27,162 nucleotides of DNA from an uncultured delta proteobacterium (GTDB lineage Bacteria > Myxococcota_A > Polyangia > Polyangiales > Polyangiaceae), in NCBI GenBank assembly GCA_963716725.1, contig CAVQUB010000031.1, positions 1 through 27,162 on the forward strand, given 5' to 3'. A program made the position numbers and the translations under genes. The notes below the pieces were generated by a model. The model was not told the origin of the DNA. It did no database searches and saw only the letters and a list, made by a program, of their open reading frames with translations. Shown here piece by piece: positions 2,801 to 27,162 of the stretch (within the stretch, counting starts at the first letter, position 1; every line of letters begins with the position of its first letter).

Positions 2801-3011
2801 GTTTGCCAGCTCCCTACCGCCGCAATGCCGAGCGTCCCCCGCGCGACGCTGGGACCCACCATCATCCACCGTGCGCCCGAGGGCGGCGCGTTGGACGGCG
2901 CGGGCACGACGCCGCCCGCGAGCAACGCGCCTCCGCCAATGAACGAAACGCCCTCGAGACCAGCCGCCCGCGACACGTCATCGCCCAGCGCGATGGTCGA
3001 TGTGGCGCAGT

Positions 3012-4484: not shown

Positions 4485-4673
4485 GGATCCCTGGCCAACC
4501 CGCTGCGGCTCGAGAGTCGACCTCGCGCTGCGCTTGTTGTTACCGCTAGACCGGAACGTCGTCCATGGTCATTTGTTCGAGGCGCGCCCGTGCCGCGCGT
4601 CCTGCGTTGGAAACAAATGACTATGGGCAGCGCTCCGCGGCGCCCGGACCTCCTGCCTAAATCGGCCATCGAC

Positions 4674-5289
4674 TCACGGCGACCGCGCACACCGAAACCC
4701 CGCGTATTCGGTTCGGTCGGAGCGCGCGCCGTAGAGACGCAGCGCCGCGCGCATGGCTTCGCTCTCGTTCGTGAACACCCCGCCCCGTCCCACTCGAACC
4801 GCGACGTCGCGGGTGTCGGCGTAGTCCACGGACGCCGACACCGGGTAGAGATCAAATGCGTCAAACACCACCTCGGAGAGATTACCCGCCAGGTGGAGGT
4901 GTCCCCAGCGCCCTGCGCCCTGCGGCAAGCTCCACACCGGCGCGATGTCGTCGCTCCAACACGGGTAGGTCGCAGGGCCGCAAAAGACCGCCAGGTTCGG
5001 GTCGGGCGCGTTCATGCCCCACGGGTATCTTCGGTTCTCGTCCCCGCCCGCGGCGGCGTACTCCCACTCCGCTTCTGTGGGGAGGCGGCCACCATCCCAC
5101 GCGCAAAACGCGAACGCTTCGTACCAATCGACGCAGTTGATCGGGAGGGCGTCGGCCGGACCGCTCGTCGGCGACCAGGTCTCACCCTGGATGCAGCTCA
5201 GCAGCCGGAGCTCCCACTCGTCTGGGCTCTTGGGCAAGCGCGACGCTCCCGACGAAGCGCCCGACCCGCAGCGCCTTCCCGACGGTCAT
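4674..5289 (-). pseudogene. FGE-fold paralog with internal deletion (signal-peptide start joined out of frame to C-terminal half)
   Basis: ATG 5289 overlaps upstream TGA and reads MTVGKALRVGRFVGSVALA; another frame from ~5237 reads LPKSPDEWE..PINCVDWYEAFAFCAWDGGRLPTEAEWEY..GFRCARSP; the Cys-rich region and first half of the domain present in the paralogs are missing. Confidence 0.75.
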
Positions 5290-6555
5290 CGTGCGCAGCG
5301 GAAGCCCTCCATGGCGGTGCGCGCCGCAGCTGCAGAGGCTCCTCGATCCGCGCTTCGCAGGAACTGGAGGCCGACGGCCCACGCTCCCCCCCGGATGCTC
5401 CGCAGCGGGACGTCGTCGGTCTGCGCATAGTCCTGGCCAGCGTCCGCCGGGTACTCGTCGAATACGTCGAGCACCCATTCGAACATGCTTCCGGCGAGAT
5501 TCGAGATGTCCCCAACGGCCGGCTCCGGCTGGAGCGCTCCCGACCGAGGGAACGTCCGCGAGGCCACAGCCTGGGTAGGGTGCCCCGTCCCACGCGCATC
5601 CGTAGATCGCGCGGTCGTTGGTCGGGAGGGCCGCGCCCCACGGGAACCTCCTGTTCTCGTCTCCGCCGGCAGACGCATACTCCCACTCCGCTTCGGTGGG
5701 CAGGCGCCCGCCGTCCCAGGCGCAAAAAACGAAGGCGTCGTACCAAGTGACACAGCTGATCGGCTGATCGGCCTCAAACGAGTCGAGCGGGGCTCCGAAG
5801 CACGTTGATTCCAGCCGGGACTCCAGCTGTGCACGCCCTGCCGGCAACATCGCGTTCCAGCTCGAGCGCCAGCCGGAGTTCGGGATTTTCGGGTGCGCCC
5901 CCGCGCCCGCTGGAAGCGGCTGGTAGTCCCAGTGCTGAACGAAGCGGCGGAATCGCCCCACCGTGACTTCGAAGCGATCCAACTCGAAGTCCGACACCGT
6001 CACAGGCCGCTCGGGCTTCTCGTCCGAAGCGGCGATGGGGTCGGCCGCCGGTGAACCCTGCTTGAAGGTGCCGCCGGGCACTGCGATCTGATCACAACAG
6101 CTGATCCCCCCACATCCGAGCCCGCCTGCGCACGACTGCCCCGACACACCGTAGGTCGCGGCACAGATGCCGCGCTCGGCATCCACGCAGGTCGCCCCGG
6201 CCTCGCAGCACGAGTCCGCCCCGCAGAGCGTCTCGGTGGAGAGGCACTTCGTACAGCGTTCGACCCCCGTGAAGTCGGTGGCGCACCGCAGGGTGCCTTC
6301 ACAACAAGTGGGTCCGCACTCGGTCGTTCCGTTCGAGCAGTCGGGCACGCAGACTTCGGCCGCGGCGTACCACCTGAGCCCGTACTGACAAACGCCGCAG
6401 GTCGCTCCGGTGCAGTGATCGACGGCGGCGTAGTCGCTCGCGCCGGTAACCTGGCTGCAAGCAGCGATGACGCCTGCGAACACCGCCGGCGAAGCCAGCC
6501 TTCGCCGCCACTGCACCCGATGAAGATCCCGCGATCGCCGCATGTTGTCGTTCAC
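5286..6555 (-). CDS. Cys-rich FGE-sulfatase-fold lipoprotein, one frameshift at ~5500
   Basis: GTG 6555 overlaps upstream stop (ATG 6543 alternative); lipobox IAAC; removing one base at ~5500 restores GHLDLAGSMFEW...GFRCAR*. Confidence 0.85.
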
Positions 6556-7799
6556 TCGTTGCGCGCGCAGCGCAGGCCCTGCCAATCGTATGCCTCGCCG
6601 ACTGACGCCGCGGCTTCCCGGTGCGCAGACCGTAAAGTGATCGTCGCGAACGGCCACGCCCCCCCCCGAAACACCCGAGCCGGGCTGTCGGCTGCGAGCG
6701 CGTAGTCGCTCGTTGCTGTCACAGGGTACTGGCCGTACGCGTCGAGCACCCATTCGGTCATGCTCCCTCCCAAGTCGAGGTGTCCCCAGCGTCCGGCGCC
6801 GAGCGGTCTGCTGCCCACCGGAGGCATGTCTTCTTTCGTGCAGAGCCCTGGGTTGCCTCCGAAGGTGCAGCCCCACACTGCCAAATTCAGGTTCGGCTCC
6901 AGCGAGCCCCACGGGAACTCTCTGTCCTGTTCCCCGCCCGCTGCCGCGTACTCCCACTCGGACTCCGTGGGCAACCGCCCCCCATCCCAGGCGCAGAACG
7001 CGAATGCCAGATGCCAACCCACGCAGTTGATGGGCTTCGTCTCGTCACCGTGGTTCCAGGTCGAACCGAAAAGCCAGCTGATGCTCGCCTCCAGCTCGGG
7101 CCGGGAGACCGGCAACTTCGAGTTCCATTGAGTTCTCCAGCCCGAGTCGGGGATCTTCGGATGTGCCCCCGCCCCTGCGGGTGGCGGTACGTAATCCCAC
7201 TTTTCGACGAAGCTCCGAAACCGCCCGACAGTCACCTCGAGCCTGTCCAAGGAGAAGCCGGAGACCGCCGCAGAGCGTTCCGGTTTCTCGTCGTCGCTCG
7301 CGGCAATCGCGGCCTCGGGCGAGCCTTGAAGCAAGGTGCCGCCAGGCACCTCGATGCTCGCGCAGCAACTCACGCCGCCACAATCTGCGCCACCCGCACA
7401 CGACTGCTTGGGCACGCCATACGCGGACCAACACACGCCCCGGGCCGGGTCGACGCAAGTGGCGCCAGCCTCGCAGCAAGTGTTTGCCCCACAGGCGGCT
7501 GCGCTCGACTCGCACCTGCTGCAACGGGACTCACCCGACCCATCGGTGATGCAACTCAGTTCGCGCTCGCAGCACGTGGGGCCGCACACCTTGGTGCCCT
7601 CGGCGCACGCCGGCAAGCAAGTCGCAGCAGGGGCGTGCCAGCGCTGTCCTGCTGGACACACGCTGCAGAGCGGCCCGGTGCACCGCTGGGAGTCGGTGTA
7701 TTCGTCGGCGCCGGTCACGGTGTTGCACGCGGCGAGGCAGGTCGCCGACACGGCGAGGGTTCGAAGCCGCACGTTCAGGAATGGGCCGCCGAACCGCAC
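6552..7799 (-). CDS. Cys-rich FGE-sulfatase-fold lipoprotein
   Basis: Lipobox LAAC; FSLDRLEVTVGRF, PINCVGW, RLPTESEWEY, DLGGSMTEW, RGGAW, GLRCAR; collinear with the downstream paralog. Start may be slightly downstream. Confidence 0.9.
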   Translation of the reverse strand: MRFGGPFLNVRLRTLAVSATCLAACNTVTGADEYTDSQRCTGPLCSVCPAGQRWHAPAATCLPACAEGTKVCGPTCCERELSCITDGSGESRCSRCESSAAACGANTCCEAGATCVDPARGVCWSAYGVPKQSCAGGADCGGVSCCASIEVPGGTLLQGSPEAAIAASDDEKPERSAAVSGFSLDRLEVTVGRFRSFVEKWDYVPPPAGAGAHPKIPDSGWRTQWNSKLPVSRPELEASISWLFGSTWNHGDETKPINCVGWHLAFAFCAWDGGRLPTESEWEYAAAGGEQDREFPWGSLEPNLNLAVWGCTFGGNPGLCTKEDMPPVGSRPLGAGRWGHLDLGGSMTEWVLDAYGQYPVTATSDYALAADSPARVFRGGAWPFATITLRSAHREAAASVGEAYDWQGLRCARNE

Positions 7800-7802
7800 G
7801 GC

Positions 7803-8927
7803 TCAGAAGCCTCCACGAACCCCAGCGCCGCCGGGGATCATCACGACCTCGACCCTTGGGGGCAACCCTCTCCGCGGCGCCGTCGTGAGCAGACCGTACA
7901 CGCCGAGCCCGAGGCCCGCCGCGCCGACGCCGAACGCCACGGTGGAAACCGTGCCCCAGGTCTTGGATGACTGCAGATCCGCCTGCGCGGCCGGGCCACA
8001 CTCTTTCGCCGTCTGGTCACACTGCTCTTTGGCTTTGTCGAAGCGCGAGAGAGCAAGGATGCCGCTCACCGTGCCGGCGGCGACGCCGGTCGCACCCACG
8101 CCAAACCCCAGGTAGACGAGAGTTCGGTCGGGCGTGGGCTCGAGCGCCACGGACAGCTCCACGCGCTTCGCCGGCTCCACAGTCACAGTGCTCCGCTGCG
8201 ACTCGTGCCCCGCGGCTCGGACCTCCACCACGTGGGTGCCCTGCTTCACTCGCACTCGCGTTGGTGCAACGCCCGCAGCGACACCGTCGACAAACACGCG
8301 CGCGCCGGCAACGTTGGCGGCGACCGCAATGGCGCCGGAGAAGTCGACCCGCTGCAACACCACTCGCAGCTCGCGGGATTTCGCGCCAGGGAGCTCGATG
8401 TTTGCTTCGAACGGCTTGTAGCCCTCCGCGACCACTTCGACCTTGGCCGCGCCCGCGTTGAGAACCACCGGCGCGATCAGCGGTGTCTTGCCCACCACCC
8501 TGCCGCGCACGAGGACCCGAGCGCCGTCGACCGAGCAGTGGAGCTGAAGTCGGGCAATCTTGTCCTTCAGAGCTTCGACCAGAGTGAAGAGCTCTGACTG
8601 CTGTGATTCGTTGAGCGTTCCCGCCTGAGCCTCCGCGATGAACGCCTGATACGACGCGAGGGCCTCGGGAAATCGCTCGAGCGCCGCAAACGCTTGGGCG
8701 ACGTTGTAGTGCAAGCGCGCGTCGCGATGTTTTGCGAGGGAGGCCTGGTAGGCGCCGAGGGCGTCGGCGTACCGGCGCCCATCAAAGGCCTCGTCCGCCT
8801 TCGACTTCAGTGCCGCGGCTTCTTCTGGGTTGCCCGCCGCGACACGGGGCGCGACCGCGAGCACCGCCGCGAACCAGCACGCCGCTGGCAGAGCGCGGCT
8901 GCTCCTGGGACGTCCACCGGCAATCAC
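7803..8927 (-). CDS. Secreted TPR + tandem PEGA domain protein with hydrophobic C-terminal region
   Basis: Signal peptide; TPR-like YADALGAYQASL..LHYNVAQ; PEGA repeats GARVLVRG..GKTPL and GARVFVDG..GTHVVEVRAAGH. Confidence 0.88.
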   Translation of the reverse strand: MIAGGRPRSSRALPAACWFAAVLAVAPRVAAGNPEEAAALKSKADEAFDGRRYADALGAYQASLAKHRDARLHYNVAQAFAALERFPEALASYQAFIAEAQAGTLNESQQSELFTLVEALKDKIARLQLHCSVDGARVLVRGRVVGKTPLIAPVVLNAGAAKVEVVAEGYKPFEANIELPGAKSRELRVVLQRVDFSGAIAVAANVAGARVFVDGVAAGVAPTRVRVKQGTHVVEVRAAGHESQRSTVTVEPAKRVELSVALEPTPDRTLVYLGFGVGATGVAAGTVSGILALSRFDKAKEQCDQTAKECGPAAQADLQSSKTWGTVSTVAFGVGAAGLGLGVYGLLTTAPRRGLPPRVEVVMIPGGAGVRGGF

Positions 8928-9038
8928 GCGCGCGAGATGCTAACAGAATCCCACCGAACCCCGTAGCGGAACTGCCGGTTGCCTTCCCGCGCGCCGCGAG
9001 TCCGTGATAACGAGCGCCGGGTTCAGATGGGAGCCGCC

Positions 9039-10052
9039 ATGAGAAAAAACTACCTATGCTCGTTCGCTCTCGCGGTCGCAGCCGCGCTGGGAAGCGCATG
9101 CGGCACCAGCAACGACCCATCCGGAGGAGGCGGCGGCGGCACCGCCGGCGCCGGCGGATCGCCTGTGGGTGGCGCGGCCGGCGCGGGGGGCGTGTCTGGC
9201 GCAGCCGGTACGGGGGGCGGCGATCTCAACCCACTGGGGAGGCGGTGCACGGCCGACGCGGATTGCGGCGACCTCGGCCTCTTCTGCCTGACCGCGAACT
9301 CCACCGACCTCGACGGTGAAGGGCCCGCGAAGGGTTACTGCACCATCGAGTGCTCGGACGGCGAGTCCTGTTCGCTGGTCGGCGAGTCCGCGCGTTGTCG
9401 CGAGCTCCAGAACGGCAAGCAGTTCTGCTTCGAGGGGTGCTCCTTCGGGCCACTGGGAACGACGACGCTGGAAGACACCAAGTGCCACGGGAGGCCCGAG
9501 GTTGCGTGCACTCCGTTGTACGTCGGTCAGAACAATGTGTTCGACGCCCCGGTCTGTGTCCCGCGCTGCAACTCGGACGCCGACTGCGGCGGGTCGCTCC
9601 GGTGCAGTCCGCGCACGGGAACCTGCACCACTGCCGACCCTTCGGGAGGCGCCGTGGGCGACCCCTGCACACCGGATGAATTCGGGGGCAACTGCAGAGG
9701 CTGGTGTTCCCCGGTGGTTCTCCCCGGAACCAGCACGATCTACACCCACATGTGCACGGAGGGTTGCACATCCGGGGCGTGGCCGTCGTGCGGCGGCGAC
9801 ACGGGCAACGGCGGGGCGGCCAGCGCCGCGTGTGCGGGTGAGAACACGACGGTTGGCAAGAACGGCGGCACGGGCGCCGGCGATCTCGCCGTCTGTGTTC
9901 CCACCTGCAACTGCAACGCCGAGTGCAAGAACCCCGACTTCGCCTGTTACGCGTCCAAGGACCCCAGCTTCGAGAAGAAGTACGGGAAGCCCGGCCGGTG
10001 CTATGGCCCAAAGACGAGTGCGAACCCGGGCATCGAGGTGTGTCCGGGGTGA
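9039..10052 (+). CDS. Cys-rich lipoprotein of unknown function
   Basis: ATG 9039 after GGGAG; signal ending GSAC; Gly-rich linker; many Cys (CTADADC, CNSDADC); GC3-rich codons. Confidence 0.85.
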   Translation: MRKNYLCSFALAVAAALGSACGTSNDPSGGGGGGTAGAGGSPVGGAAGAGGVSGAAGTGGGDLNPLGRRCTADADCGDLGLFCLTANSTDLDGEGPAKGYCTIECSDGESCSLVGESARCRELQNGKQFCFEGCSFGPLGTTTLEDTKCHGRPEVACTPLYVGQNNVFDAPVCVPRCNSDADCGGSLRCSPRTGTCTTADPSGGAVGDPCTPDEFGGNCRGWCSPVVLPGTSTIYTHMCTEGCTSGAWPSCGGDTGNGGAASAACAGENTTVGKNGGTGAGDLAVCVPTCNCNAECKNPDFACYASKDPSFEKKYGKPGRCYGPKTSANPGIEVCPG

Positions 10053-10068
10053 TCGGCGGCGCGGGTCT

Positions 10069-11412
10069 TCAGAATCGAGGAGGCAACCCGACGGTTGCCG
10101 TCGGCAGGGCCGGCGCGGGCTCCGGCGGGCCCGGCTTCGGGACGGCGGCCTTCGGCCGCGGCTTCGGTGTGGCTCCCGCGTCACGCGAGTTGAGTGAGGA
10201 CGCGCTGGCGGCCGGAGCACTCGCGCGCTCGCTGGTCGCAGTCGCGGGCGTGGCCGGCAACTGGGCGGCCTCCTCGGATGCCGGTTCGGCAGAGAAAGCC
10301 GGCGGCTGCGCATGCGGCGCCCGCGCCCGCGCCAACACCCCGCCCAGCGCCGCGAGCGCGACGACCGCGATCACCACCGCGGCCGGACGAGGCCACGAGG
10401 GAGCGGAGGCCTGCGCCGCCAGTGCTCTGACCAAGTCATCGCAGTTGGCGAAACGATCCTCTGGGCGCTTTGCAAGGCAACGCTCGACGATGCGTTCGAG
10501 CGCCCGGGGCACCGCGGGATTCACGCTCGAGAGCCGCTTGGGGCGATCCCGGTCGATGGCGATCAGCAGCGCGACCGCGCCAGTGGCCACGAATGGCTTC
10601 CGCCCTCCGAGCATCTCGTAGAGCACGACGCCGAACGAGAAGATGTCGCTCCGCTGGTCCACGGGATCGCCTTTGGCCTGCTCCGGAGACATGTAGCTCG
10701 GCGTGCCGAGCACTCGCCCTTCCACGGTAACGATGTCGCTGTGGTCGGTCGTGTCGCTGTCCAGTGGGACCTCGCGGGTGCCGATGGGCTTCGCCAAACC
10801 GAAATCGAGCAGCTTCACCGAACCGGTCGGCGTGACCATCACATTGTCGGGCTTCAGATCTCGGTGCACGATCCCCGATTCGTGTGCCTTCGCGAGTCCG
10901 AGCAATATTTCTCGACCAATGCCCACCGCCTCGGCGACCGGGAGCGCCCCATCGCGGAGTCGGGAGCGGAGCGTGTGCCCTTCGACCAGCTCCATGGCGA
11001 TGTACACGCTCGAGTCGGCGATCTCGTCCACCTCGAACACGGTGGCCACGTTCGGGTGCGTGATCGTCGAGGTCGCCCGAGCCTCGCGGAGGAAGCGCTG
11101 CCTTCGATCCGCATCTGCCGCGAACCTGTCGGGCAACACCTTGAGCGCCACACGCCTGCGAAGCTTCTTGTCCTCCGCCGCGTAGACGATCCCCATGCCC
11201 CCGCGCCCGATTTCGGCGATGATGCGGTACCTCCCGAACTGAGTGCCCACGCGGTTCGTCTCTGGCTGCGGGGGGGCGACCTCGGGGGAAGCAGCGGCTG
11301 CTCGCAGGAACGACTCCTCTGCGCTGTTCCAGCCCTCCTCCGAAGCGGAATCGAGTTCCGACGAGTGCTCGGGGACTTCTGGCGGAGTCTTGGCGGTACT
11401 CGAATCGCTCAT
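10069..11412 (-). CDS. Membrane-anchored Hanks-type Ser/Thr protein kinase
   Basis: IGRGGMGIV, VALK, HRDLKPDN, DFG, GTPSYMSPE, DIFSFG; TM AAVVIAVVALAALGGVLA; start ATG 11412 preferred over TTG 11478. Confidence 0.93.
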   Translation of the reverse strand: MSDSSTAKTPPEVPEHSSELDSASEEGWNSAEESFLRAAAASPEVAPPQPETNRVGTQFGRYRIIAEIGRGGMGIVYAAEDKKLRRRVALKVLPDRFAADADRRQRFLREARATSTITHPNVATVFEVDEIADSSVYIAMELVEGHTLRSRLRDGALPVAEAVGIGREILLGLAKAHESGIVHRDLKPDNVMVTPTGSVKLLDFGLAKPIGTREVPLDSDTTDHSDIVTVEGRVLGTPSYMSPEQAKGDPVDQRSDIFSFGVVLYEMLGGRKPFVATGAVALLIAIDRDRPKRLSSVNPAVPRALERIVERCLAKRPEDRFANCDDLVRALAAQASAPSWPRPAAVVIAVVALAALGGVLARARAPHAQPPAFSAEPASEEAAQLPATPATATSERASAPAASASSLNSRDAGATPKPRPKAAVPKPGPPEPAPALPTATVGLPPRF

Positions 11413-11533
11413 CGACCGTCCGGCCCGCCTGCGTTCTTTGGGGAACTGCCCATCACCCGCTCGAGAGCAGGATAACACGCCGCTCCACCGCAGCGCGGAG
11501 CGGTGCTAGCGTCGGGACACCGGCGGACGTGGC

Positions 11534-16319: not shown

Positions 16320-18683
<2,364 letters not shown>

Positions 18684-18728
18684 GGTTGTTCGGACCGCGG
18701 CGCTCGGCGCCGACGCTCCGCCTCGGGG

Positions 18729-18953
18729 TCAGTCCTTCTTCGGGACGAGTTTCATCCCGCACTTCGGGCACTGACTGGGTTTGTCGTCCGTGACCTCGGG
18801 GTGCATCGGGCAGACGTACCGGGTCGCCTCCGCCGTCGGCTGCGCCTGGGACGGCTCTGCCGCGGGCTTGCTGTCGCAGGCCGCGGAGAGCGCAGCGGTC
18901 GCCAGCGCGACGGCCAATCCGGAGAACACTTTCTTGGAGTAGCGGGTCATCAT
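18729..18953 (-). CDS. Small lipoprotein with heavy-metal-binding domain
   Basis: Signal ending [21 protein letters not shown]. Confidence 0.88.
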
Positions 18954-18965
18954 GCGGGGGCTCGT

Positions 18966-18981
18966 CGCAAGCTTCGCGCCA
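18966..18981 (-). promoter_or_regulatory. Sigma54 (-24/-12) promoter for the lipoprotein-copA genes
   Basis: TGGCGCGAAGCTTGCG on minus strand, exact GG-N10-GC spacing, 12 bp upstream of ATG 18953; bEBP encoded next door. Confidence 0.8.
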
Positions 18982-19053
18982 CCCGACCCGCCCGGGGATC
19001 GAGCGAGCAATTCCAGAATTCGCCGGCGAGCTCGGGGCCTCGCCCTGGGCAGC

Positions 19054-19091
19054 TGTGACCCGATGGGATCCGGTGTGACCGAGCGGGTCAC
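19054..19091. promoter_or_regulatory. Candidate tandem enhancer (UAS) sites for the sigma54 activator
   Basis: GTGACC-N5-GGTCAC (19075-19091) and imperfect GTGACC-N5-GGATCC (19055-19071), 20 bp apart, 74-110 bp upstream of the -24 element. Confidence 0.6.
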
Positions 19092-19170
19092 CGGGGCGCG
19101 CTCCTCGCTCAGCCGCCGCAGTTGGCGCTGTCGTTGCCCCGGCTGCGGCAGCCGCGTGCCGCATGCCGCC

Positions 19171-20551
19171 TCAGCCGCTGTCCGCTCGCACGCCGTAACG
19201 TCGCAAGAGTCGGTAGAAGCTCTCGCGCTCGATGCCCGCGTGCGCCGCCGCATCTGCCACGCGCCCACCGAAGCGATCCATCACCGCCGTGAGGTAGAGC
19301 TGCGCCGCGTCGTCACGCGCGCGGTCGAGGGCCGCCTGCCAGCTCGAAATCGGCTAGGTCACCACCGTCGCCCGGCGCGGGGCGTCGGAGCACTTCGTCC
19401 GGCAGGTCGCTGACGTCGATGGTGTCTCCCGGCGCCAGCAAACACGCGCGCTCGACCGCGGATCGGAGCTGCCGCACGTTGCCGGGCCACTCGTAGGCGC
19501 TGAGTTTGGAGAGCGCCTCGTCGCTGAAACCCAGGATCCGACGTTCCGAAATGGTCGCGGCGCGCTCGCGCAAGAAGTGTCGCGAGAGCAGCGGCACGTC
19601 CTCCTTGCGCTCGCGGAGCGGCGGAACGCGGACGAGCGCCACGTTCAGGCGGTACCAGAGATCCTCACGGAACGATCCGGCCCCCACCATCGCTTCCAGA
19701 TCACGATGGGTCGCGGCGACCAGACGCACGTCGACCGCGCGCTCGCGGGACTCGCCCAAGCGGCGCACGGCCTTCTCTTCGATGGCGCGGGTGAGCTTGG
19801 CCTGAAGTGACAGCCGGAGCTCCCCGATCTCGTCCAAGAACAGCGTGCCCTGGTGGGCCTCTTCGAACAGGCCTCCGCGGTCGCGCCCGGCGCCGGTGAA
19901 CGCACCGCGCGCGTATCCAAACAGCTCACTCTCCAGCAGCTCGGCCGGAATCGCGGCGCAGTTGACCGCCACGAATCGCTGGGAGGCCCGGGCGCCCAGC
20001 CCGTGAATGGCGCGGGCGATGCGCTCCTTGCCGGTGCCGGTCTCCCCAATCACCAGCGCGGTGGCGTCGCTGGTGGCGTAGCGCTGGACCAGCGACGCGA
20101 GCTGTTGCATCGGCTGGGAGCGCCCGACCAAGCCCGGCAACAACTCCTTGGGCAGCGCAGGGTCGTCAGCCGGGTCTCCAGTCGGAGCCGAGCGCCCCAC
20201 GGCGCTGAGGACGACTCCACGCAACACCTCGGGCTCGAAGGGTTTGGTGATGTAGTCGTAGGCGCCGAGCCGCAGCGCCTCGACGGCGGTGGCCACCGAA
20301 GCATGGGCCGTCATCAGGATGAACTCGGTGTTCGGCCGCAGACGCTTGCACTCGCGGAGAACTTCGATGCCCTCCATGTCTGGCATGCGCAGATCACACA
20401 CGACGACGGACACGGGCTTGGTCTTCAGGAACTCGATCGCCTCGCGCCCTCCGGACGCCGTCCAAACGCGCACGTCCTTGCCGAGCACCTTCTTGACCAG
20501 GCTCAGCATGTTGGCTCGGTCGTCGACCACGAGCACGCTGTGTTCAGTCAC
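19171..20551 (-). CDS. Sigma54-dependent NtrC-family response regulator (CorR-like), one frameshift at ~19346
   Basis: [54 protein letters not shown]; shifted frame gives Fis [26 protein letters not shown], stop at 19171. Confidence 0.92.
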
Positions 20552-22070
20552 TCTTCGCCTGCGCTTTCTCCGGGCGCTCCCGCAGCGTCACGACCACGCG
20601 CGTCCCGCCGCCCGCGCGGTCCAACAGCTCGATGCTGCCATCGTGCGCCTCGACGATGCCCTTTGATACCGCCAGACCCAAACCCGAGCCACCCCGGCGG
20701 CCCGAGAAGAAGGGCTCGAAGGCGCGGATGCGCAACGAGTCCGGCACGCCCGGCCCGCAATCGGCAACGGTGATCCGGTAGCCCCCGGGAGCGCCTCACC
20801 GGTCACCTCGACCACCGCGCTCGAGTCCGTGGCCTGGATGGCGTTCCGCAGGAGATTCTGGACCACCTGCCGCACCCGGACCACGTCCACCGCGCGTTCG
20901 GCCGGCTCGACTTCGGTCGCGATGGTCCGTCCCTTGGCGTCGGCGCTCGCCCCAAACCGATCGGCGGCCTGGCGGACCACCTCGTCCATCGGAGCACGCT
21001 CGACGACCAGCTCGCCGGATTTTGCGTAGCTCAAGAGATCCTCGGCGATGCGCTGGCAGGCGACGGCCTCTTCGTCGAGGATGGCGAGCTCCCCGGCCAG
21101 ATCGTCGTCCGCTTCCTTGCGCATGGTGGCGACGTAGCCCCGAATCACGGCGATGGGATTGTTGATCTCGTGGGCCACCCCCGCGGCGAGCTGCCCGATG
21201 GCGGCCATCCGCTCATTCGCCACCAGCTGCTTCTGATGAAGTCTGAGCTGCTCGGCCATCCTATCGAAGGCGTGGGCCAAGAGCCCCAACTCACCCTGGC
21301 CGACCTCGCCGACGCGGGTGTCCAGATCACCCGTCCCCAAGCGCTGCGCTGCCGCGGTCAGGGTGGCGAGGGGTCGCAACACCACCCGGCGCAAGCTGAG
21401 CGCGAGCGCCGCTGCGACCGCGGCCAAGAGCGCGATGCCGGCGATGCTCGACCACCATGCCATGCGCGCGGCGGAGATGGCGTGCATGTGGGCCCCAGCC
21501 ATCAGGTCCTCCACGCCCCGCGCCACGAGATCAGCTTCCGCCGCCGCAGCCATCGACAGCTCCTCGATGCGGGCGTGGGGGCCGCGGATCGCCGCCAGAT
21601 CACGCTGCCCGAGGGCCGGCACGATTTCGCCGCGGAAATACCCGATCCACCTTGCGACTCGCGTCGCCGATGGAGTCGACGCGGCGGCGCTCCGACGCGG
21701 GAACGGCGCCGCGGAGCGTGCTCGCCGCGACGCTGACCTTCGCAGCCCAGTGCTCGTAGTGCGGCAAGTGGTCCAGGTTGCCGTGCACGATGCAGTGGGC
21801 CACGTGGATGTACTGCTCGCGAATCGCGGCCGCGAGGCCCAAGCTGTCCCGGATCGCCATCTCGTCGGCACGCATCTGTTCCAAGTTGGCGTTCACCCCC
21901 CGCAGCAGCGTGAGGTGCACGACGCTGAGCCCCGCCGCGATGATCCAGACGATCAAGAATGCGGCGGAGAGTTGGCGGCCGATGCGGCGAGGCGGCTCCG
22001 CATGGGGCGCCCTGCGGCCGCTCAGGGCTGTTGGCGCGGCGAGGCCTTCGGCGGCAGAGTCGGCGGTCAT
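20544..22070 (-). CDS. HAMP sensor histidine kinase with His-rich periplasmic domain (CorS-like), frameshifts near 21650 and 20780
   Basis: Two TM segments; REQYIHVAHCIVHGNLDHLPHYEHW; HAMP; H-box AHEINNP; NLLRNA; DCGPG; FEPFFS; GSGLGL. Confidence 0.9.
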
Positions 22071-22240: not shown

Positions 22241-22390
22241 ATGCCGTTCGACGCCTCCGTCGTGCGCAGCTATCGGGTCGGCGCCTTCCCGACCAACTAC
22301 TTCGTCTCGAAAGAGGGCCAGATCACCGGCCACACCGTGGGCATGAGCACGCGCGTCGGCATGGGTGCGCGGCTGGGGTGTGCGCGGTGA
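22241..22390 (+). pseudogene. C-terminal fragment of a TlpA/redoxin-like gene
   Basis: DASVVRSYRVGAFPTNYFVSKEGQITGHTVGMSTRVGMGARLGCAR* resembles the thioredoxin-fold cis-Pro region; differences from copy 1 are synonymous or conservative in this frame; no CxxC N-terminus. Confidence 0.65.
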
Positions 22391-22628
22391 GGGTGGCCCC
22401 TTCGACCGGAAAGACCTTCTCCGCCACTTCTGGGCCGTAGAGCCGGTCCGCCAGTCTGTTCCGCACAGCGCGGTCGGCGAGCGCAGGGGCGTCGGCCCTG
22501 ATCGCAGCCTCGGCAAGCGTTCTCACCATGGTGCTCAACCGAAGCGCAATCGCCAGGCGCTCAACGGGCGACCTCTCCGCGAGCAGTTCGAAATAGCGCG
22601 TCTCGGCGGCGGGCGACGTGTCGTGCAA
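22323..22628 (-). CDS. Small helical hypothetical protein (~101 aa)
   Basis: TTG after GGAGG; HDTSPAAETRYFELLAERSPVERLAIALRLSTMVRTLAEAAIR..LYGP; substitutions between copies include synonymous Arg codons and D/E. Confidence 0.7.
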   Translation of the reverse strand: MHDTSPAAETRYFELLAERSPVERLAIALRLSTMVRTLAEAAIRADAPALADRAVRNRLADRLYGPEVAEKVFPVEGATLTAHTPAAHPCRRACSCPRCGR

Positions 22629-22637
22629 GGTCCCTCC

Positions 22638-22667
22638 AGTATAGGGCGGGCGCACCAGCGCTCGCAA
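22638..22667 (-). promoter_or_regulatory. Candidate sigma70 promoter of the small ORF
   Basis: TTGCGA-N18-TATACT; copy 1 has TTGCGA-N18-TATTCT. Confidence 0.5.
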
Positions 22668-22937
22668 CCAGCGGTGCAGGTGCACGCGCGTGGGCATGAA
22701 CACGCGGCTCGGGTGTGCGCGGAGAGGCTGCCAGAGGCGTCCGCCGGAGCCGTTCTGGCCGTAGCGCTTGCGACCGTGCTGGCAGCGGAGGGCAGATCGC
22801 GGTGAACCTGCGCCGCTCGTAGAAGGCCCCGTCGGTCCGGCTTGGCACCCATGTGGCCGGTCCGGTTTGTCAGCTGTGTGGCCGGCTTGATTTGTTACCT
22901 CTTTAGCCGGTCTGGACCGGCGAATTGTGTTGAGATC

Positions 22938-22950
22938 TAACCGGCCAATC
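22938..22950 (+). repeat. Left inverted repeat
   Basis: TAACCGGCCAATC. Confidence 0.75.
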
Positions 22951-23156
22951 TCGGGTCGCCGATATGGGCGATTCGTTCTGTTCCCTCTGCCCCGAGTTGG
23001 CCCGTGCCGTGTCGAATCAGCCATGATCACGGCGGAAGAAAGTGAGAGGGCCCGGATGGTCACTTCCGAGCCCTCAGGTCGTCGCGGTGGTCGCGGTCGA
23101 CGGCGCTACCCTCGCATGCCACCCCGTGCTGCGGCCAGCTTTCTGCATTCGCAGCG

Positions 23157-23801
23157 GTGGTCGTTTTTCAGCAGGCGAAGTGTTCTCGCGTTGGATGCCA
23201 CAACGTGCTCGACGTTTGCCCGGCGTGCAACTACGGCAGGCTGTTCTGCGACCCGGAGTGCCGACGCTTGTCGCGCGAAGCGTCCGTGCGCCGGTACCGC
23301 CGCAGCAAGCTGGGGCACACGACGACGGCGGCGCGAGTGGCTCGCTGGCGTGAGCAGCAGAAAAATGTAACGCACAGCACAGCCGAAAAACTTGGCCATC
23401 GTGAGATGGTCGTCCCGTTCGTAGCCGAGGCCGTCGTTGGGGCGGCATCGAGCTCGGAGCGGGAGTCGACCCATGAGCTCGATTTGGATGGGCGTTGCAC
23501 CTGGGCCCCAGGAGATGCGCGTGCTCGCAATGGCCGGCCCGAGCGAGACGATTCTAAAGGCCCGGTTGCTGCGCCCGCCGACGCACCCTCGGGCGTTGCC
23601 GCTTCTGCTCGAGGCGCTGGCGCTGTGGCAGGGGCAACCGGTCCGCGTTGCGCTCGCTGCGGAAGAGCGGGGCGTCGAAGCGGACTTGTCAGCCTACGAT
23701 GGGATCCCAATCGACAACGGGGCGCCGCTGTACACCGTGGACTGGGTACCACCGCCCGCTCGCGTTCGTCGCCGTCATCGCGACCTCGTGGGCGTCGGTG
23801 A
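23157..23801 (+). CDS. Cys-rich putative Zn-binding basic protein
   Basis: CSRVGC, CPAC, FCDPEC, Arg-rich helix, KNVTH, distal CARCGR; start uncertain (out-of-frame ATG at 23116). Confidence 0.6.
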   Translation: MVVFQQAKCSRVGCHNVLDVCPACNYGRLFCDPECRRLSREASVRRYRRSKLGHTTTAARVARWREQQKNVTHSTAEKLGHREMVVPFVAEAVVGAASSSERESTHELDLDGRCTWAPGDARARNGRPERDDSKGPVAAPADAPSGVAASARGAGAVAGATGPRCARCGRAGRRSGLVSLRWDPNRQRGAAVHRGLGTTARSRSSPSSRPRGRR

Positions 23802-23847
23802 ATTCTGCGATTTGAGGCAGATGCTGCTCTTCGGAGTGCCTCGATGA
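23473..23847 (+). CDS. Hypothetical protein (124 aa), overlapping the upstream ORF
   Basis: GGGAG RBS before ATG 23473; globular-looking composition; stop overlaps next ATG (ATGA). Confidence 0.8.
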   Translation: MSSIWMGVAPGPQEMRVLAMAGPSETILKARLLRPPTHPRALPLLLEALALWQGQPVRVALAAEERGVEADLSAYDGIPIDNGAPLYTVDWVPPPARVRRRHRDLVGVGEFCDLRQMLLFGVPR

Positions 23848-24144
23848 CCGCGCCCAGCCCCGACGGCGCGAGCAGCGCCACGGCCGTCCTCGCAGCGCTC
23901 GAGGTGCGCAATCTCACGCCCTTGCTCGAGGACGTCTGCCGTCGTCGTGGCGTGGTTCGGGAAGAGCTCTGCGGCCGAGCTCGGACCTCGAGCGTGTCAC
24001 GTGCACGCCAGGAAGCTCTGGTGGCTGATTCGTAATCAGTCCGATCGCCATTACAGCCTCCTGGAGATTGCATCGCTGTTCCGTCGCGATCACGCCACCG
24101 TGCACCACGGCATCCGAGCGCACCAGCGACGTGCAGTGCCATGA
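23844..24144 (+). CDS. Stand-alone DnaA C-terminal (domain IV)-like HTH protein, one frameshift at ~24013
   Basis: Removing one A gives LLEDVCRRRGVVREELCGRARTSSVSRARQELWWLIR..YSLLEIASLFRRDHATVHHGIR; ATGA overlaps at both ends. Confidence 0.8.
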
Positions 24145-25191
24145 GCAGCAGCCTGCAATGCGACCTCGGTACCGCCTTGCGCGTGGTCGCGCACTCGGAG
24201 ATTGGCCATTCGCTCGTGGATGCCAATGGCGTGGTCGCCGAGGTTCATGAGTTTCTCTCGGCACTCGGGGTCCGCGGATTATCCCGGCGTACGGTCCGGG
24301 CGTACGCATATGATCTGCTGCTGCTCTATCGATGGATGCGTGCTGAGGGGCGCTCGCTTCGGCAGCTCGAGGCACGCGACTTGTTGGGGTTCATCGCAGC
24401 GCAACGCAAGGCCGGCGCAGAGCCACGCTCAATCAATCGCCGGTTGACCACAGCCCGCCTTCTGTATCGCTTCTGGATGAATCGAGAGCTCGGCGTCGGC
24501 TCTCGCGTGAGCTTGCCCGCTGCGCACTACAAGGGGCCCGGTCGTGATCACGACCTCGGCATTCACCGGCTCCGACGACGCGGCGTGCTCAAGCTCCGTG
24601 TCCAAGAGCCGCGCAAGCTCGTCGAGCCGCTCACGCCCGAGCAGGTGCGAGCGTTCCTTCGCAGTCTCACCCGCTACAGGGATCTCGCCATCACCCATTT
24701 CATGCTCCTGTGCGGCCTTCGCTCGGCTGAAGTTCTCGGGCTCGAGCTTGCCGACGTCGTTTTCAGCGACGGCCGTGTTCGCGTCTGCGGCAAAGGGCAG
24801 CGCGACCGCGCACTGCCCTTGCCGCTCGTGCTCTCACGCACGTTGCGGCGGTACCTCGAGCTCGAGAGGCCCAGGCAGTGTAGCAAGCCGAGTCTGTTCG
24901 TCGTCTTACAGGGTAAGCGCCGCGGCCAGCCCATGACGCCGGCTGGACTGAGGAGCTTGTTCCGGCATCGTCGTCGCCGGCGCGTGCTCGCGATCGCCAA
25001 CCCCCACCGGTTTCGACACACGTTCGGGGCCGACATGGCGCGCGCTGGTGTGCGCTTGCCCGTTCTGCAACAGATGATGGGCCATGCCGATTCTGAAGAC
25101 AACACTGCAGTACGTACGGTTGTCCATGGCCGACGTGGCCGACGAGTTCCGGCGCGCGCTCAAGAAAATCGCCGCCCGCTATCGGCAATGA
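24141..25191 (+). CDS. Tyrosine recombinase 1, one frameshift at ~25093
   Basis: TVRAYAYDL core-binding motif; catalytic set GLRSAE, GKG, HRFRH, MGH and, after correction, TTLQY; stop 25189-25191. Confidence 0.9.
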
Positions 25192-25200
25192 GATTGCATC

Positions 25201-26581
25201 ATGGCGCGCCGCGACCCCCTCGCCCATCTGCCCCCTTTCGCGCTCGAATTCTTGCAGCGCGAGCCGAGAGCGCGCGGCGTTCTGAGCCAATTTCCACCTT
25301 TGGTTGAAGGCCAGCTGCCGGCCGATCCTGCAGCTCGAGAGCTCGGAAATCGATCGCTTCCTTCAGCAGCCATCCAAGGCGCCGGTGCCCGAGCATGTGC
25401 GCGCCCGCCAACGCCGCCTCGCCCTGATGTATTTCGAGTGGCTTCATGCACGTGGTCTCCTCGGCTTCGACCCGCGTTGCGCTTGGCCGCGTTCGAATTT
25501 CCCGCTGCCACCACATGCCAGCCGCTTCCTCGAATTGCTCAAACCCACGCACTCGCTGCAGACCGGTACGCGCCTATCAAACCCATCTCCGACAGTTTCA
25601 CATCTGGCTCAACGCCAACCATGTGTCTCTCGTCGGCCTGGAGCGTTCACACATCGAGTCCTGGCTCGCCTGGCTCCACGCTCGCCACCTCGCTGCCTGC
25701 ACCCGAGTTCACGCCATCCAGAACATCCGCGCGTACCTCGAGTCGCTCGAAGAGCAGCGCGTGCTCTCTGTGCCCGCCGACACATTGATCCGTGGCAGCG
25801 ACCTGCCGAAGCTCCCCAAGTACCTGCCTCGCCCGGTTCCTCCTGACACCGACCTCCTCCTTCAGCGCCGGTTCAAGAAGTCCGGGTGCATGTATCAGCT
25901 CGGTTTGCTCCTGATGCGACGCACCGGACTTCGCATCGGCGAGCTCATCGCATTACCGTACCACTGCATCCGCACCGACCACAGCGGCAACACCCTGCTC
26001 AAGGTCCCGCTCGGCAAGCTCGCCACCGAGCGGCTGGTCCCGCTCGATCCGGCGCACCGTCACGCTCGTTTCCAGATTGCGGCGGACAGGCCCGCGTAAG
26101 CGCACCCTGCTGCTCGCAACTGCCGCCGGTCGCAAGACCCTTTACGGGTCCTATAGAGAAGCACTTCGCGAGGCCTGCCGTGGCATTCAGTTCGCCGAAC
26201 CGATGACGACGCATCGCCTCCGTCACACCTACGCGACATCGCTCCTGGCCGCAGGAATGAGCCTTCCCTCGGTCATGCGATTGCTCGGCCACACCGCTAC
26301 CGCATGACCCTGCGATACGCGGGGATCACCGGCACCACCGTGTTCGCCGAATTCGCCGCGGCACTCGAGCGAATTGCCGAGCGCTACCCCGTGATCACTC
26401 CCACGGCTGCTACCGCCTCACCCCCCGCTCCGGAGCCCCTCAAGTTGCTGGCCGACCTCGCTAGATACGTGCAGAAGCGCACCCAAGACGATGGGCTGAT
26501 CGCTTCGCACGCATGCTCGTCCGACGTGTCCGCCGACTGCAAGCCGATCTCCGCAGACTGCTTCGCAAATCTCCGCGCTGA
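25201..26581 (+). CDS. Tyrosine recombinase 2 with N- and C-terminal extensions, ~5 frameshifts
   Basis: Across frames: PKLPKYLPRP, TGLRIGEL, VPLGKLATERLVP, HRLRHTYATSLL, LLGH, MTLRY; reconstructed end VRRLQADLRRLLRKSPR* at 26581. Confidence 0.85.
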
Positions 26582-26593
26582 GGAGCGCGGCAC

Positions 26594-26606
26594 GATTGGC
26601 CGGTTA
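26594..26606 (-). repeat. Right inverted repeat
   Basis: GATTGGCCGGTTA. Confidence 0.75.
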
Positions 26607-26789
26607 ATTGACCCACTTTCGGACGACTCGCGTTCGCGCTTCGTCGAGTGCGTGGAAGTCGGCCCTCGCACGCACGAGGTCGAGCGCTCGCGTCGTTTCG
26701 CATGCGCGACGACCTTCGACGCGTCCGAGTGCTGAGAACGCGTCCAGCGTGGCAGCGGCGAGGCCCAGGTTCGCGTGTTATGCGAAGAC

Positions 26790-26939
26790 ATGCACGCCTC
26801 GCCCTCGCCCTCGCCCTCGCCCTCGCCCTCGCCCTCGCCCTCGCTCGCTGCTCTCACCGATGCCGAGCTCATCGCGCGCTTGCCGGAGGTTCGTCGCGAC
26901 GAGCGCCGAGCCATCGCCGAGGTCATTGCCTGTCGCTGA
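26790..26939 (+). pseudogene. Truncated N-terminus resembling myxobacterial DUF222-like/HNH proteins
   Basis: MHA(SP)7SLAALTDAELIARLPEVRRDERRAIAEVIAC then stop; no continuation evident. Confidence 0.5.
26799..26843. repeat. Hexanucleotide microsatellite (TCGCCC)7+
   Basis: Seven perfect TCGCCC units plus TCG. Confidence 0.95.
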
Positions 26940-27162
26940 TCGCCGTGGAACAAAGCAGCGCTCAGAAACCGAGACACTGCGCCGAACGGCGCGCGATGAA
27001 ATCCGGGTCGCGGCACGTGCCATGGAAATCCAACGCGCGAGTGCGGGAGCATGACGGCAACTGGGTCAGCTTCACTGACGCCGGGCGGCGCTACTCAGCG
27101 GATCAACTTCATACCAGCCAGACCGAAGAACTAATTGCAGTTTCTCGAAACAGTCGCAAGAA

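Follow-up and report, generated by a model that had tools for sequence, protein, structure and literature searches.

A 27,162-nt stretch of contig CAVQUB010000031.1 (assembly GCA_963716725.1, positions 1-27,162 of the forward strand) of an uncultured member of the Polyangiaceae, referred to below as the window, contains near its right end a compact unit of 3,669 bp (22938-26606). Five co-oriented genes lie in it between perfect 13-bp inverted repeats, and cargo is absent. The genes encode a putative zinc-finger protein (ZnF), a second protein read from an overlapping open reading frame (ORF2), a helix-turn-helix (HTH) protein of the DnaA domain IV type, and two tyrosine recombinases, IntA and IntB (Table 1). 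Comparison with related loci suggests that the unit is probably one copy of a small cargo-free transposon, in which IntA and IntB, the putative engine, are distant homologs of the TnpA and TnpB recombinases of Tn554-like transposons.

The left terminal sequence, TAACCGGCCAATC, recurs as its exact reverse complement at the right end. When searched for in the 27-kb window with up to two mismatches, it gave matches at these two ends only, compared with 0.23 matches expected, and two of 100 shuffles reached this number. The GC content is 63-67% within the unit versus 68-70% in the upstream DNA. The genes are tightly packed: stop/start overlaps of the ATGA type join ORF2 to the HTH gene (23844-23847) and the HTH gene to IntA (24141-24144), the IntA-IntB intergenic gap is 9 nt, and the IntB stop codon is separated from the right inverted repeat by 12 nt. 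A preliminary description of this DNA, made from the sequence alone, had proposed a coupled operon of this composition, without cargo, in a tyrosine-recombinase mobile element bounded by 13-bp repeats. These points are borne out by the located repeats, by the gene overlaps, and by Pfam matches to Bac_DnaA_C and Phage_integrase and to integrase pieces.

Table 1. Features of the unit and its borders (positions in the window)
Feature	Position	Strand	Remarks
Left copy of 4-nt flanking repeat (TTGA)	22930..22933	.	identical to 26608-26611
Element-side bases GATC, between flanking repeat and left inverted repeat	22934..22937	+	kept between loci
Left terminal inverted repeat, 13 bp	22938..22950	+	core ACCGGCCAA conserved at element ends in 18 of the 36 related loci
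ZnF gene: N-terminal Cys cluster, basic stretch, C-terminal CxxCG	23023..23801	+	start uncertain, 23023 or 23056
ORF2, 124 aa, other frame over 3' half of ZnF gene, RNase H-like fold (predicted)	23473..23847	+	
DnaA-domain-IV-type HTH gene, ~100 aa	23844..24144	+	Pfam Bac_DnaA_C
IntA, tyrosine recombinase, TnpA-like (small) type	24141..25191	+	Pfam; match to P0001
IntB, tyrosine recombinase, TnpB-like type, tandem core-binding domains	25201..26581	+	tblastn frames, Pfam pieces
Right terminal inverted repeat, 13 bp	26594..26606	-	
Right copy of 4-nt flanking repeat (TTGA)	26608..26611	.	one base (A, 26607) beyond inverted repeat

Conserved ends and a four-base flanking repeat in related loci

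Related loci were collected in one genome scan, which gave a set of 36 (L001-L036), and this set was searched by tblastn with the intact proteins of one of its members, the 3,399-nt contig L001. IntA is directly followed by IntB in 14 of them (L001-L014), as in the window; L015-L020 are broken, interrupted or cut copies, and L021-L036 contain unrelated or spurious matches only. The 9-mer core of the inverted repeat, ACCGGCCAA, is found at both ends in the window, L001, L004, L005, L009, L011, L013, and L014. L002, L003, and L010 have it at the left end and a version with one or two mismatches at the right, and in L006-L008, L012, L017, L018, and L020 it is found at the one visible end. The 11 two-ended elements measure 3,261-4,012 nt from repeat to repeat. 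Since the same terminal core surrounds IntA-IntB pairs in other contigs of metagenome-assembled genomes (MAGs) with labels of several phyla, the inverted repeat of the window is not a product of chance, and the conservation of the repeats across copies, which had been proposed as a check, was thus confirmed.

The preliminary description reported no target duplication, and this claim does not stand. In the window, the tetranucleotide TTGA flanks both inverted repeats, at a distance of 4 nt on the left and 1 nt on the right, and a repeat in the same register is found throughout the two-ended elements: positions -8 to -5 on the left and +2 to +5 on the right agree at all four bases in nine of the 11, and at three of four in L002 and L005. 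A scan of 81 register pairs gave 0 in all off-diagonal cells; the cells above 0 beyond the main one are shifts within the same register, with values of 5, 3, 3, and 2 inward and of 1 a base outward. In L010, L011, and L014, the flanks are identical over 7-8 nt.

The two junctions are not symmetrical. The four-base gap from the left copy to the left inverted repeat reads GATC in the window, L002, L003, and L005, TATC in L001, and GATG in L004. The left GATC is kept between loci and the matching bases on the right vary, so GATC belongs to the element. The same is seen with 7-mers, which are kept between loci on the left (GACGGAT in L002, L003, and L005) and variable on the right. The left junction always keeps the next three bases of the element, and the right junction has the target-like version.

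The tetranucleotide tracks the IntA clades. It is TTGA in the window and L001 (80% identical IntA), GAC(A/G) in L002/L003 and L004/L005, TCGG in L006-L009 (83-93% identical) and L020, and CCAG in L012, L013, and L018, and it takes single values in L010, L011, and L014. A duplication resulting from a random staggered cut would not be inherited by a lineage, and we therefore infer that the four bases are the crossover core, which would be present once in the joined form of the element and once in the target. When the ends of the 11 two-ended elements are joined in silico, a constant spacer of 9 nt separates the 13-mers in each; if the arms are taken as 14 nt, the spacer is 7 nt long and centred on the dyad. 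This agrees with the repeat-spacer-repeat site that had been predicted for the joined ends.

Some flanks agree further than the core. The left flanks of L012, L013, and L018 share TGTCCAG, i.e., TGT before the core CCAG, and those of L009 and L020 share CTTTCGG. The target reconstructed for L009 (~690-705 and 4645-4660) is palindromic (CTTTCGG / GAAAG), and the left flank of L020 (~4175-4193) resembles its reverse complement. There are hints here that the subfamily with a primase gene, described below, may have a wider target preference. A separate observation concerns the DNA left of the element in the window, where about four motifs with GGCCGG cores, similar to the core of the element ends, are spaced by 25 nt (22833-22937), two of the copies being 80% alike. 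These motifs may be remnants of old ends, extra binding sites, or chance occurrences in GC-rich DNA; none of their type was seen in the left flanks inspected for other loci.

IntA has dozens of relatives at 61-99% identity, and IntB-type proteins form 246 clusters at E <=1e-30. Among 120 IntA relatives listed, the longest contig is at most 5 kb in 112 cases and has the size of an element (3.2-4.1 kb) in 46. Element-sized contigs that stop at element ends are the pattern of multi-copy repeats in an assembly. The L001 contig opens on the 4-nt repeat, 8 nt ahead of the left inverted repeat, and runs to one base past the right 4-nt copy, 6 nt past the right inverted repeat. These limits are expected if all copies in that genome share the tetranucleotide. 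The record titles of the loci name Gemmatimonadaceae, "Deltaproteobacteria", Polyangiaceae, Acidobacteriota (many), Planctomycetota, Chromatiaceae, and Aestuariivirga, and the phylum labels of family contigs include Myxococcota, Acidobacteriota, Planctomycetota, and Gemmatimonadota.

The recombinases IntA and IntB

IntA is matched by the Pfam models Phage_integrase and SAM_1 (E 2.8e-25), and IntB by integrase pieces in three frames. The residues of the catalytic set (R, K, HxxR, H, and Y) do not vary among 26 IntA relatives and 33 IntB relatives. The intact IntB homolog in L001 (1994-3367) has 458 aa, and lengths of 217 to 695 aa are found in the best 150 of the 246 clusters of IntB relatives. 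IntB contains tandem core-binding (SAM-like) domains: residues 8-98 and 99-192 align in hhalign with a probability of 99.7% (E 1.7e-25), compared with 0.8% for the catalytic domain used as a control. The N-terminal extension of ~95 aa is thus a second core-binding domain. The structural model of IntB (pLDDT 86) ends in a C-terminal helical hairpin, and its fold matches are ordinary tyrosine recombinases. None of the NCBIfam recombinase models reaches its cut-off with these proteins; the best ones are Xer models, XerC with 145 versus 335 bits and XerD with 126 versus 330.

In searches of plasmids, the best matches of IntA (32-37% identity) are small recombinases of Rhodococcus and Mycobacterium, and in two plasmid records that were opened the small recombinase adjoins a recombinase of 637-651 aa. 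IntB is much more selective and matched only 134 plasmid records at E 1e-8; among the 60 of these that were listed, large actinobacterial recombinases come first, followed by proteins of Staphylococcus and Enterococcus. The Enterococcus and Staphylococcus matches that were opened are TnpB proteins of the Tn554 family. The annotation of one such record (L039) reads "Tn554 family transposase A / B"; it contains ant(9)-Ia and erm(A) and is next to a UPF0758 gene. A Proteus record is a Tn554-family element with a DUF6262 (TnpC) gene. The IntB matches in Proteus and Providencia were considered as integrative elements of the strand-biased circularizing kind (SEs) and rejected, as they are Tn554-family elements.

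Pairwise comparisons assign the two recombinases to different sides of the TnpA-TnpB pair. IntA is 26% identical to TnpA (E 1e-25, versus 4e-6 for TnpB), and IntB is 25-26% identical to TnpB (E 4e-20 to 1e-25, versus 1e-8 to 2e-9 for TnpA). The actinobacterial proteins are closer, with 35-37% identity between IntA and the small partner and 35-38% between IntB and the core of the large one. In phmmer searches, IntB scored 134 bits with the mycobacterial large partner, 61-68 bits with Tn554-family TnpB, and 45 bits with a solved XerD, and IntA scored 177 bits with the small partner. In a tree of 31 rows, all 12 B-type proteins, including IntB, TnpB, and the actinobacterial large recombinases, fall on one side of a branch with support of 98/97, and IntA forms a 98/99 clade with the actinobacterial small partners.

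Accessory genes and the state of the window copy

Two subfamilies can be distinguished by the genes upstream of IntA. In the "myxo-type" subfamily (the window and L001-L005) these are ZnF and ORF2. The ZnF proteins of the window and L004 are 36% identical over 217 aa (E 2.6e-34), a match that covers 23151-23786 of the window, and the ZnF alignment has conserved Cys columns. ORF2 relatives show 52-53% identity (E ~1e-30). Neither protein matched a Pfam or NCBIfam family; all look-alikes of ZnF are unnamed clusters, and all 236 homologs of ORF2 are likewise unnamed, one of them being from the genome of an isolate, Pendulispora albinea.

The overlap of the two genes is genuine, as both the frame relation and the two proteins are conserved. 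The ZnF frame is +2 relative to ORF2 in all six myxo-type elements, with an overlap of 290-335 nt, and across the span of ORF2 it contains one or two stops versus three to seven in the third frame. In the same six elements, ORF2 residues 57-62 are invariably those overlapped by the C-terminal CxxC(G/A) motif of ZnF, and the motif is positioned over the fourth beta-strand of ORF2; the C-terminal CxxC motif is also found in L012 and L014, both of which are devoid of ORF2. The ORF2 model (pLDDT 76.5, pTM 0.74) has the beta-beta-beta-alpha-beta order of RNase H-like folds. Foldseek finds only weak matches for it among solved structures (best E 3e-3, TM <=0.53), all of the generic RNase H-like fold. 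An active nuclease of the RuvC or IS110 type was kept as a lead only, on a language-model score of 0.89 to DEDD_Tnp_IS110 and the weak Foldseek matches; at the end of strand 1, where a RuvC-type nuclease requires an acidic residue, none is conserved.

The HTH gene is matched by Pfam Bac_DnaA_C in two frame pieces (23844-24035 and 23947-24144). Of the five-gene synteny that had been anticipated for related loci, the IntA-IntB order is kept, but tblastn of the 36 loci gave no match to the HTH gene; in L001, for instance, it is absent and the ORF2 stop overlaps the IntA start. Relatives of the HTH protein form 10 clusters with 82-88% identity, all with PF08299, nine of them 91-103 aa long and one a 49-aa fragment; the two that were rescanned scored 50.8 and 51.0 bits versus a gathering score of 31.5. 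They come from contigs of 1.3-4.6 kb, except for the 49-aa fragment, which is on a contig of ~279 kb, and three of the contigs (3559, 3602, and 2996) coincide in size and source with IntA clusters at 82-88% identity. Because these relatives are few and coincide with close IntA clusters, the five-gene form represents a narrow sub-lineage. A scan for DnaA boxes (9-mer consensus, up to two mismatches) gave 14 matches versus 17.6 expected, with none at the element ends, and thus provides no support for DnaA-box binding.

In the sister "acido-type" subfamily, a DnaG-type primase with Zn_ribbon_DnaG, DNAG_N, and Toprim domains is encoded directly upstream of IntA. All 10 loci tested (L006, L007, L009-L014, L017, and L020) have the primase, in three cases in a split or partial form. 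The gene before it encodes either a DUF6431 protein (L006, L007, L009, L011, L013, and L020) or a ZnF protein (L010, L012, L014, and L017).

Judged against intact relatives, the window copy contains ~8 frameshifts, which hit four of the five genes: ZnF near 23145-23150 (weakly supported), HTH near 24010-24014, IntA at 25092, and IntB at about five sites near 25292, 25565, 26070, 26300, and 26500. The catalytic residues of the window recombinases are readable only after frame correction. The preliminary description had already read R-K-HxxR-H-Y in both proteins in this way, and the residues, invariant in the relatives, support it; the correction is, however, heavier than was stated.

The frameshifts could mean that the family is mobile and the window copy a dead relic, a pseudogenised fossil, an explanation that we take seriously although we lean away from it. 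The number of shifts within 3.7 kb speaks for it, as does the shift at 25092, which leaves the catalytic Tyr of IntA out of frame, and functional copies do exist elsewhere, as the near-identical intact IntA P0001 shows. The comparison with this 349-aa protein also provides counter-evidence, since the protein identity, read in two frames, is 99.4% over 317 aa and 100% over the other 32 aa. Moreover, two of the shifts consist of one extra base beside an identical base, as a sequencing error would give: GAAG, where ten homologs imply GAG, and GATTCTG, where P0001 reads Asp-Leu. Flanking genes are equally frame-split: an FGE-sulfatase domain is distributed over the minus-strand ORFs 5182-7017 and 4674-5237 (profile positions 4-141 and 80-255, respectively), and a heavy-metal P-type ATPase (16320-19268, minus strand) over at least three ORFs. 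As frameshifts thus occur window-wide, those of the element may be sequence errors, and decay is not separable from error.

Relation to known transposons and a proposed mechanism

The best reading of these data is that the element belongs to a branch of Tn554-like two-recombinase transposons that resembles insertion sequences (IS) and is apparently undescribed, rather than to a wholly new class. The actinobacterial pairs of L037 and L038 resemble the element in that the two recombinase genes are neighbours on one strand and the small one precedes the large one. They differ in the large partner (637-651 aa versus 458 aa for IntB), in hosts and GC content, and in the ends, at which the ACCGGCCAA core was not found in L037 or L038; furthermore, accessory genes (ZnF, ORF2, HTH or primase) precede the pair in the element and its relatives. 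Pairs of this actinobacterial kind have already been named Tn554-like, some of them without TnpC, in the accessible part of Van Houdt et al. 2012 (PMC3414803).

Tn554 shares with the family the order A then B on one strand and short terminal inverted repeats. At ~6.7 kb, Tn554 is larger than the 3.7-kb element. The family is further distinguished by the absence of TnpC/DUF6262 and of resistance cargo, by ends that are perfectly conserved across the family, where those of Tn554 are imperfect, and by a shared core of 4 nt instead of the 6-bp footprint. DUF6262 was seen in no Pfam scan of the window or its relatives, and blastp of ORF2 and ZnF versus TnpC gave nothing. The size of large TnpB proteins (~610-830 aa, with a long N-terminal extension) is not reached by the 458 aa of IntB. 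Insertion of Tn554-related elements is site-selective, with a 6-bp flank copied as a footprint and the target not duplicated, whereas the family shows its 4-nt identity at a fixed register. For Tn554, the available text of PMC10214605 describes terminal inverted repeats that are short and imperfect, and a short piece of flank that acts as a footprint.

SEs offer the second comparison, made by description only. According to the same available text, SEs have two catalytic tyrosine recombinases, a core operon intA-tfp-intB-srap, and a median size of 15.7 kb; as in Tn554, a 6-bp flank is carried in the joined form between short imperfect terminal repeats, and a copy-out route that needs new DNA synthesis is proposed (PMC10214605). 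The element resembles SEs in its translationally coupled operon, in small helper genes at one end, and in its ends: SE repeats of 13-19 bp with a flank-derived spacer correspond to the 13-bp repeats and to the spacer inferred for the joined form (9 nt, or 7 nt with 14-nt arms). It differs in that IntA and IntB are adjacent without tfp (14 loci and the window), no third gene has a recombinase fold, the helpers are upstream and not downstream, cargo is absent, and the hosts are not Gammaproteobacteria.

RIT elements are likewise compact and cargo-free, with tyrosine recombinases within terminal inverted repeats, but they have three recombinases in adjacent, overlapping genes (ritA-ritB-ritC), and their ends are of 34 bp (a table note in the consulted part of PMC10214605) versus 13 bp. 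Two core-binding domains have been reported as peculiar to RitA (PMC8138268); IntB has two as well. RIT-like elements were encountered directly in the locus set. An element of ~3.4 kb with three recombinases and perfect terminal inverted repeats of ~26-29 nt sits inside IntA in L020 (6797-10200) and L015 (1002-4431). The two copies are oppositely oriented and occupy one and the same codon position, where His and Thr of the catalytic HxxRH-TF box meet; L017 (~6793-7150) has a remnant of such a trio element, ~360 nt long, at the same spot of IntA. It looks as if the trio element homes into catalytic-box codons of another element's recombinase gene. IntB scores at most 28 bits with the trio proteins of L015 and L020.

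The remaining systems are more distant. GInt elements (ginA-ginB-ginC-ginD, three recombinase-type genes and one other) are set apart by gene content, as described. BIM elements were considered as the closest kin and rejected, since they combine one recombinase with an SMC-like protein. Integrases of the Tn916 type require identity in only a part of the overlap. The same was described for IntDOT of CTnDOT in the accessible part of PMC2817482. Such partial identity would explain the four identical and three variable bases at the junctions; however, these are single integrases with an arm-binding domain and Xis, from large conjugative elements, and no close sequence relation was seen.

The preliminary description had proposed instead a categorically new class, defined by the ZnF, ORF2, and DnaA-type HTH genes and unrelated to Tn554, RIT, or Xer; we consider this unlikely. 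It had not recognised the three accessory genes from described families. In favour of a new class, ZnF and ORF2 are not covered by any family of Pfam or NCBIfam, the NCBIfam recombinase models all score below cut-off, and no description of the family was found in the literature searched, which lay mostly outside subscription journals. Moreover, five groups of tyrosine-recombinase transposons in prokaryotes are recognised in the available text of PMC10214605, which mentions Tn554-related ones only for Staphylococcus and Enterococcus, and the element is unlike all five in gene order, size, termini, and hosts. Against a new class stand the positions of IntB with TnpB and the actinobacterial large recombinases and of IntA with their small partners, on the well-supported branches described above, together with the same A-then-B gene order. 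Nor can the accessory genes be a defining feature, as they are not constant: ZnF and ORF2 occur together only in the window and five loci, none of the 36 has the HTH gene, and a primase takes its place in the sister subfamily.

An even less probable alternative is an integrative element that is specific to a single fixed attachment site, similar to a minimal integrative and mobilizable element, rather than a transposon with many targets. Constancy of the flanking four bases within lineages is consistent with it, as are the longer left-flank agreements in L012, L013, and L018 and in L009 and L020, and both Tn554 and SEs are described as site-selective in the available text of PMC10214605. However, the flanks of L002-L005 and the window are unrelated beyond ~8-12 nt, contigs break at element ends as they do at multi-copy repeats, and no tRNA gene was found in the window by a tRNA scan. 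Finally, the unit might be immobile, with inverted repeats that serve an invertible switch or a chromosomal Xer-type system as its sites, since recombination at inverted sites inverts DNA and the best NCBIfam matches are Xer models, but this can be virtually dismissed given Xer scores far below cut-off (145 versus 335 bits), the recurrence of the same unit in different flanks under many taxonomic labels, its repeated occurrence and bounding inverted repeats where Xer dimer resolution has a single chromosomal dif site, a flanking direct repeat that marks insertion, and the lack of promoter-type cargo inside.

For a Tn554-like transposon with these ends, the following mechanism can be proposed: (i) IntA and IntB would bind the 13-14-bp terminal inverted repeats and synapse both ends, (ii) the ends would be joined into a circle, in which the arms are 7-9 nt apart and hold one 4-nt core followed by GATC of the element, (iii) the joint would recombine with a target in which these four bases are also present, and crossover within them would leave the core on both sides of the insert, and (iv) the core would travel with the element and hence be constant within a lineage. 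The asymmetric junctions may mean that exchange is confined to about four bases, and may also reflect an ordered or strand-biased exchange; in SEs and Tn554, one junction receives the spacer and the other the bases of the target, according to the available text of PMC10214605. The small upstream proteins (ZnF, the RNase H-like ORF2 product, and, in the sub-lineage of the window, the HTH protein) could be site-binding or directionality helpers. The primase in the position of the HTH gene in the sister lineage hints, speculatively, at an intermediate that is primed or replicated, as in the copy-out model of SEs.

Several points weigh against this interpretation of the element and its ends. Tyrosine recombinases usually have an overlap of 6-8 bp, and the shared core of 4 nt is shorter; an overlap of 7 nt that tolerates heterology may be the true one, or a choice of target directed by protein may account for the four bases. 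IntA scores 77-79 bits with Firmicute TnpA versus 75-86 bits with solved Xer proteins in phmmer, and the tree, built without a Xer outgroup, does not place Firmicute/Tn554 TnpA against the trio proteins. IntB has 458 aa rather than ~630 aa, a TnpC (DUF6262) homolog is not present, and the window copy carries its ~8 frameshifts. Joined ends and empty sites were not observed, so that the circular form is inferred from the ends. A second copy from the window's own genome was not found in the single genome scan, and most related loci are short MAG contigs; because the taxonomic bins of such 3-4-kb repeat contigs are unreliable, the breadth of the family across phyla is likely rather than firm.

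The most complete picture would be an IS-sized, cargo-free, heteromeric tyrosine-recombinase family under several phylum labels, with an SE-like copy-out/copy-in route in which the primase or HTH protein acts on a single-stranded or nicked circle, a heritable 4-nt core as target selector, and ORF2 overprinted on the ZnF gene; as a whole, this combination is offered only tentatively and may well fail in one of its parts. The family probably widens the Tn554-like kind by a minimal IS-like form and by phylum labels beyond Staphylococcus, Enterococcus, and the Actinobacteria added by Van Houdt et al. 2012. With the conserved 13-bp ends and the fixed geometry of the junctions, the recombination site is easy to define, the primase and the DnaA-type HTH protein at the same gene position provide a handle on whether two-recombinase transposons use a replicated copy-out intermediate, and the lineage-specific 4-nt core offers a simple model of target choice.

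The surroundings of the element show several further features. An Rfam search over 22300-27162 at E 0.1 gave no match. In the reconstructed hypothetical empty site, the longest open frame over the junction has 258 aa on the minus strand and a GC content at third codon positions (GC3) of 0.74, and says nothing on gene interruption. As a means of gene calling, GC3 gave too weak a signal. Upstream of the element there is a 55-nt direct repeat (22341-22395 and 22676-22730, 82% identical, 335 nt apart), overlapped by a 21-nt inverted repeat. On its right, a perfect run of the hexamer (GCCCTC)n at 26797-26844 encodes a Ser-Pro repeat in a small ORF (26775-26939). Farther away, 19313-21871 contain a sigma-54 activator and histidine kinase pair, and 947-11478 two Ser/Thr protein kinase genes, three FGE-sulfatase-domain loci, and one PEGA/TPR protein, a gene set typical of Myxococcota.

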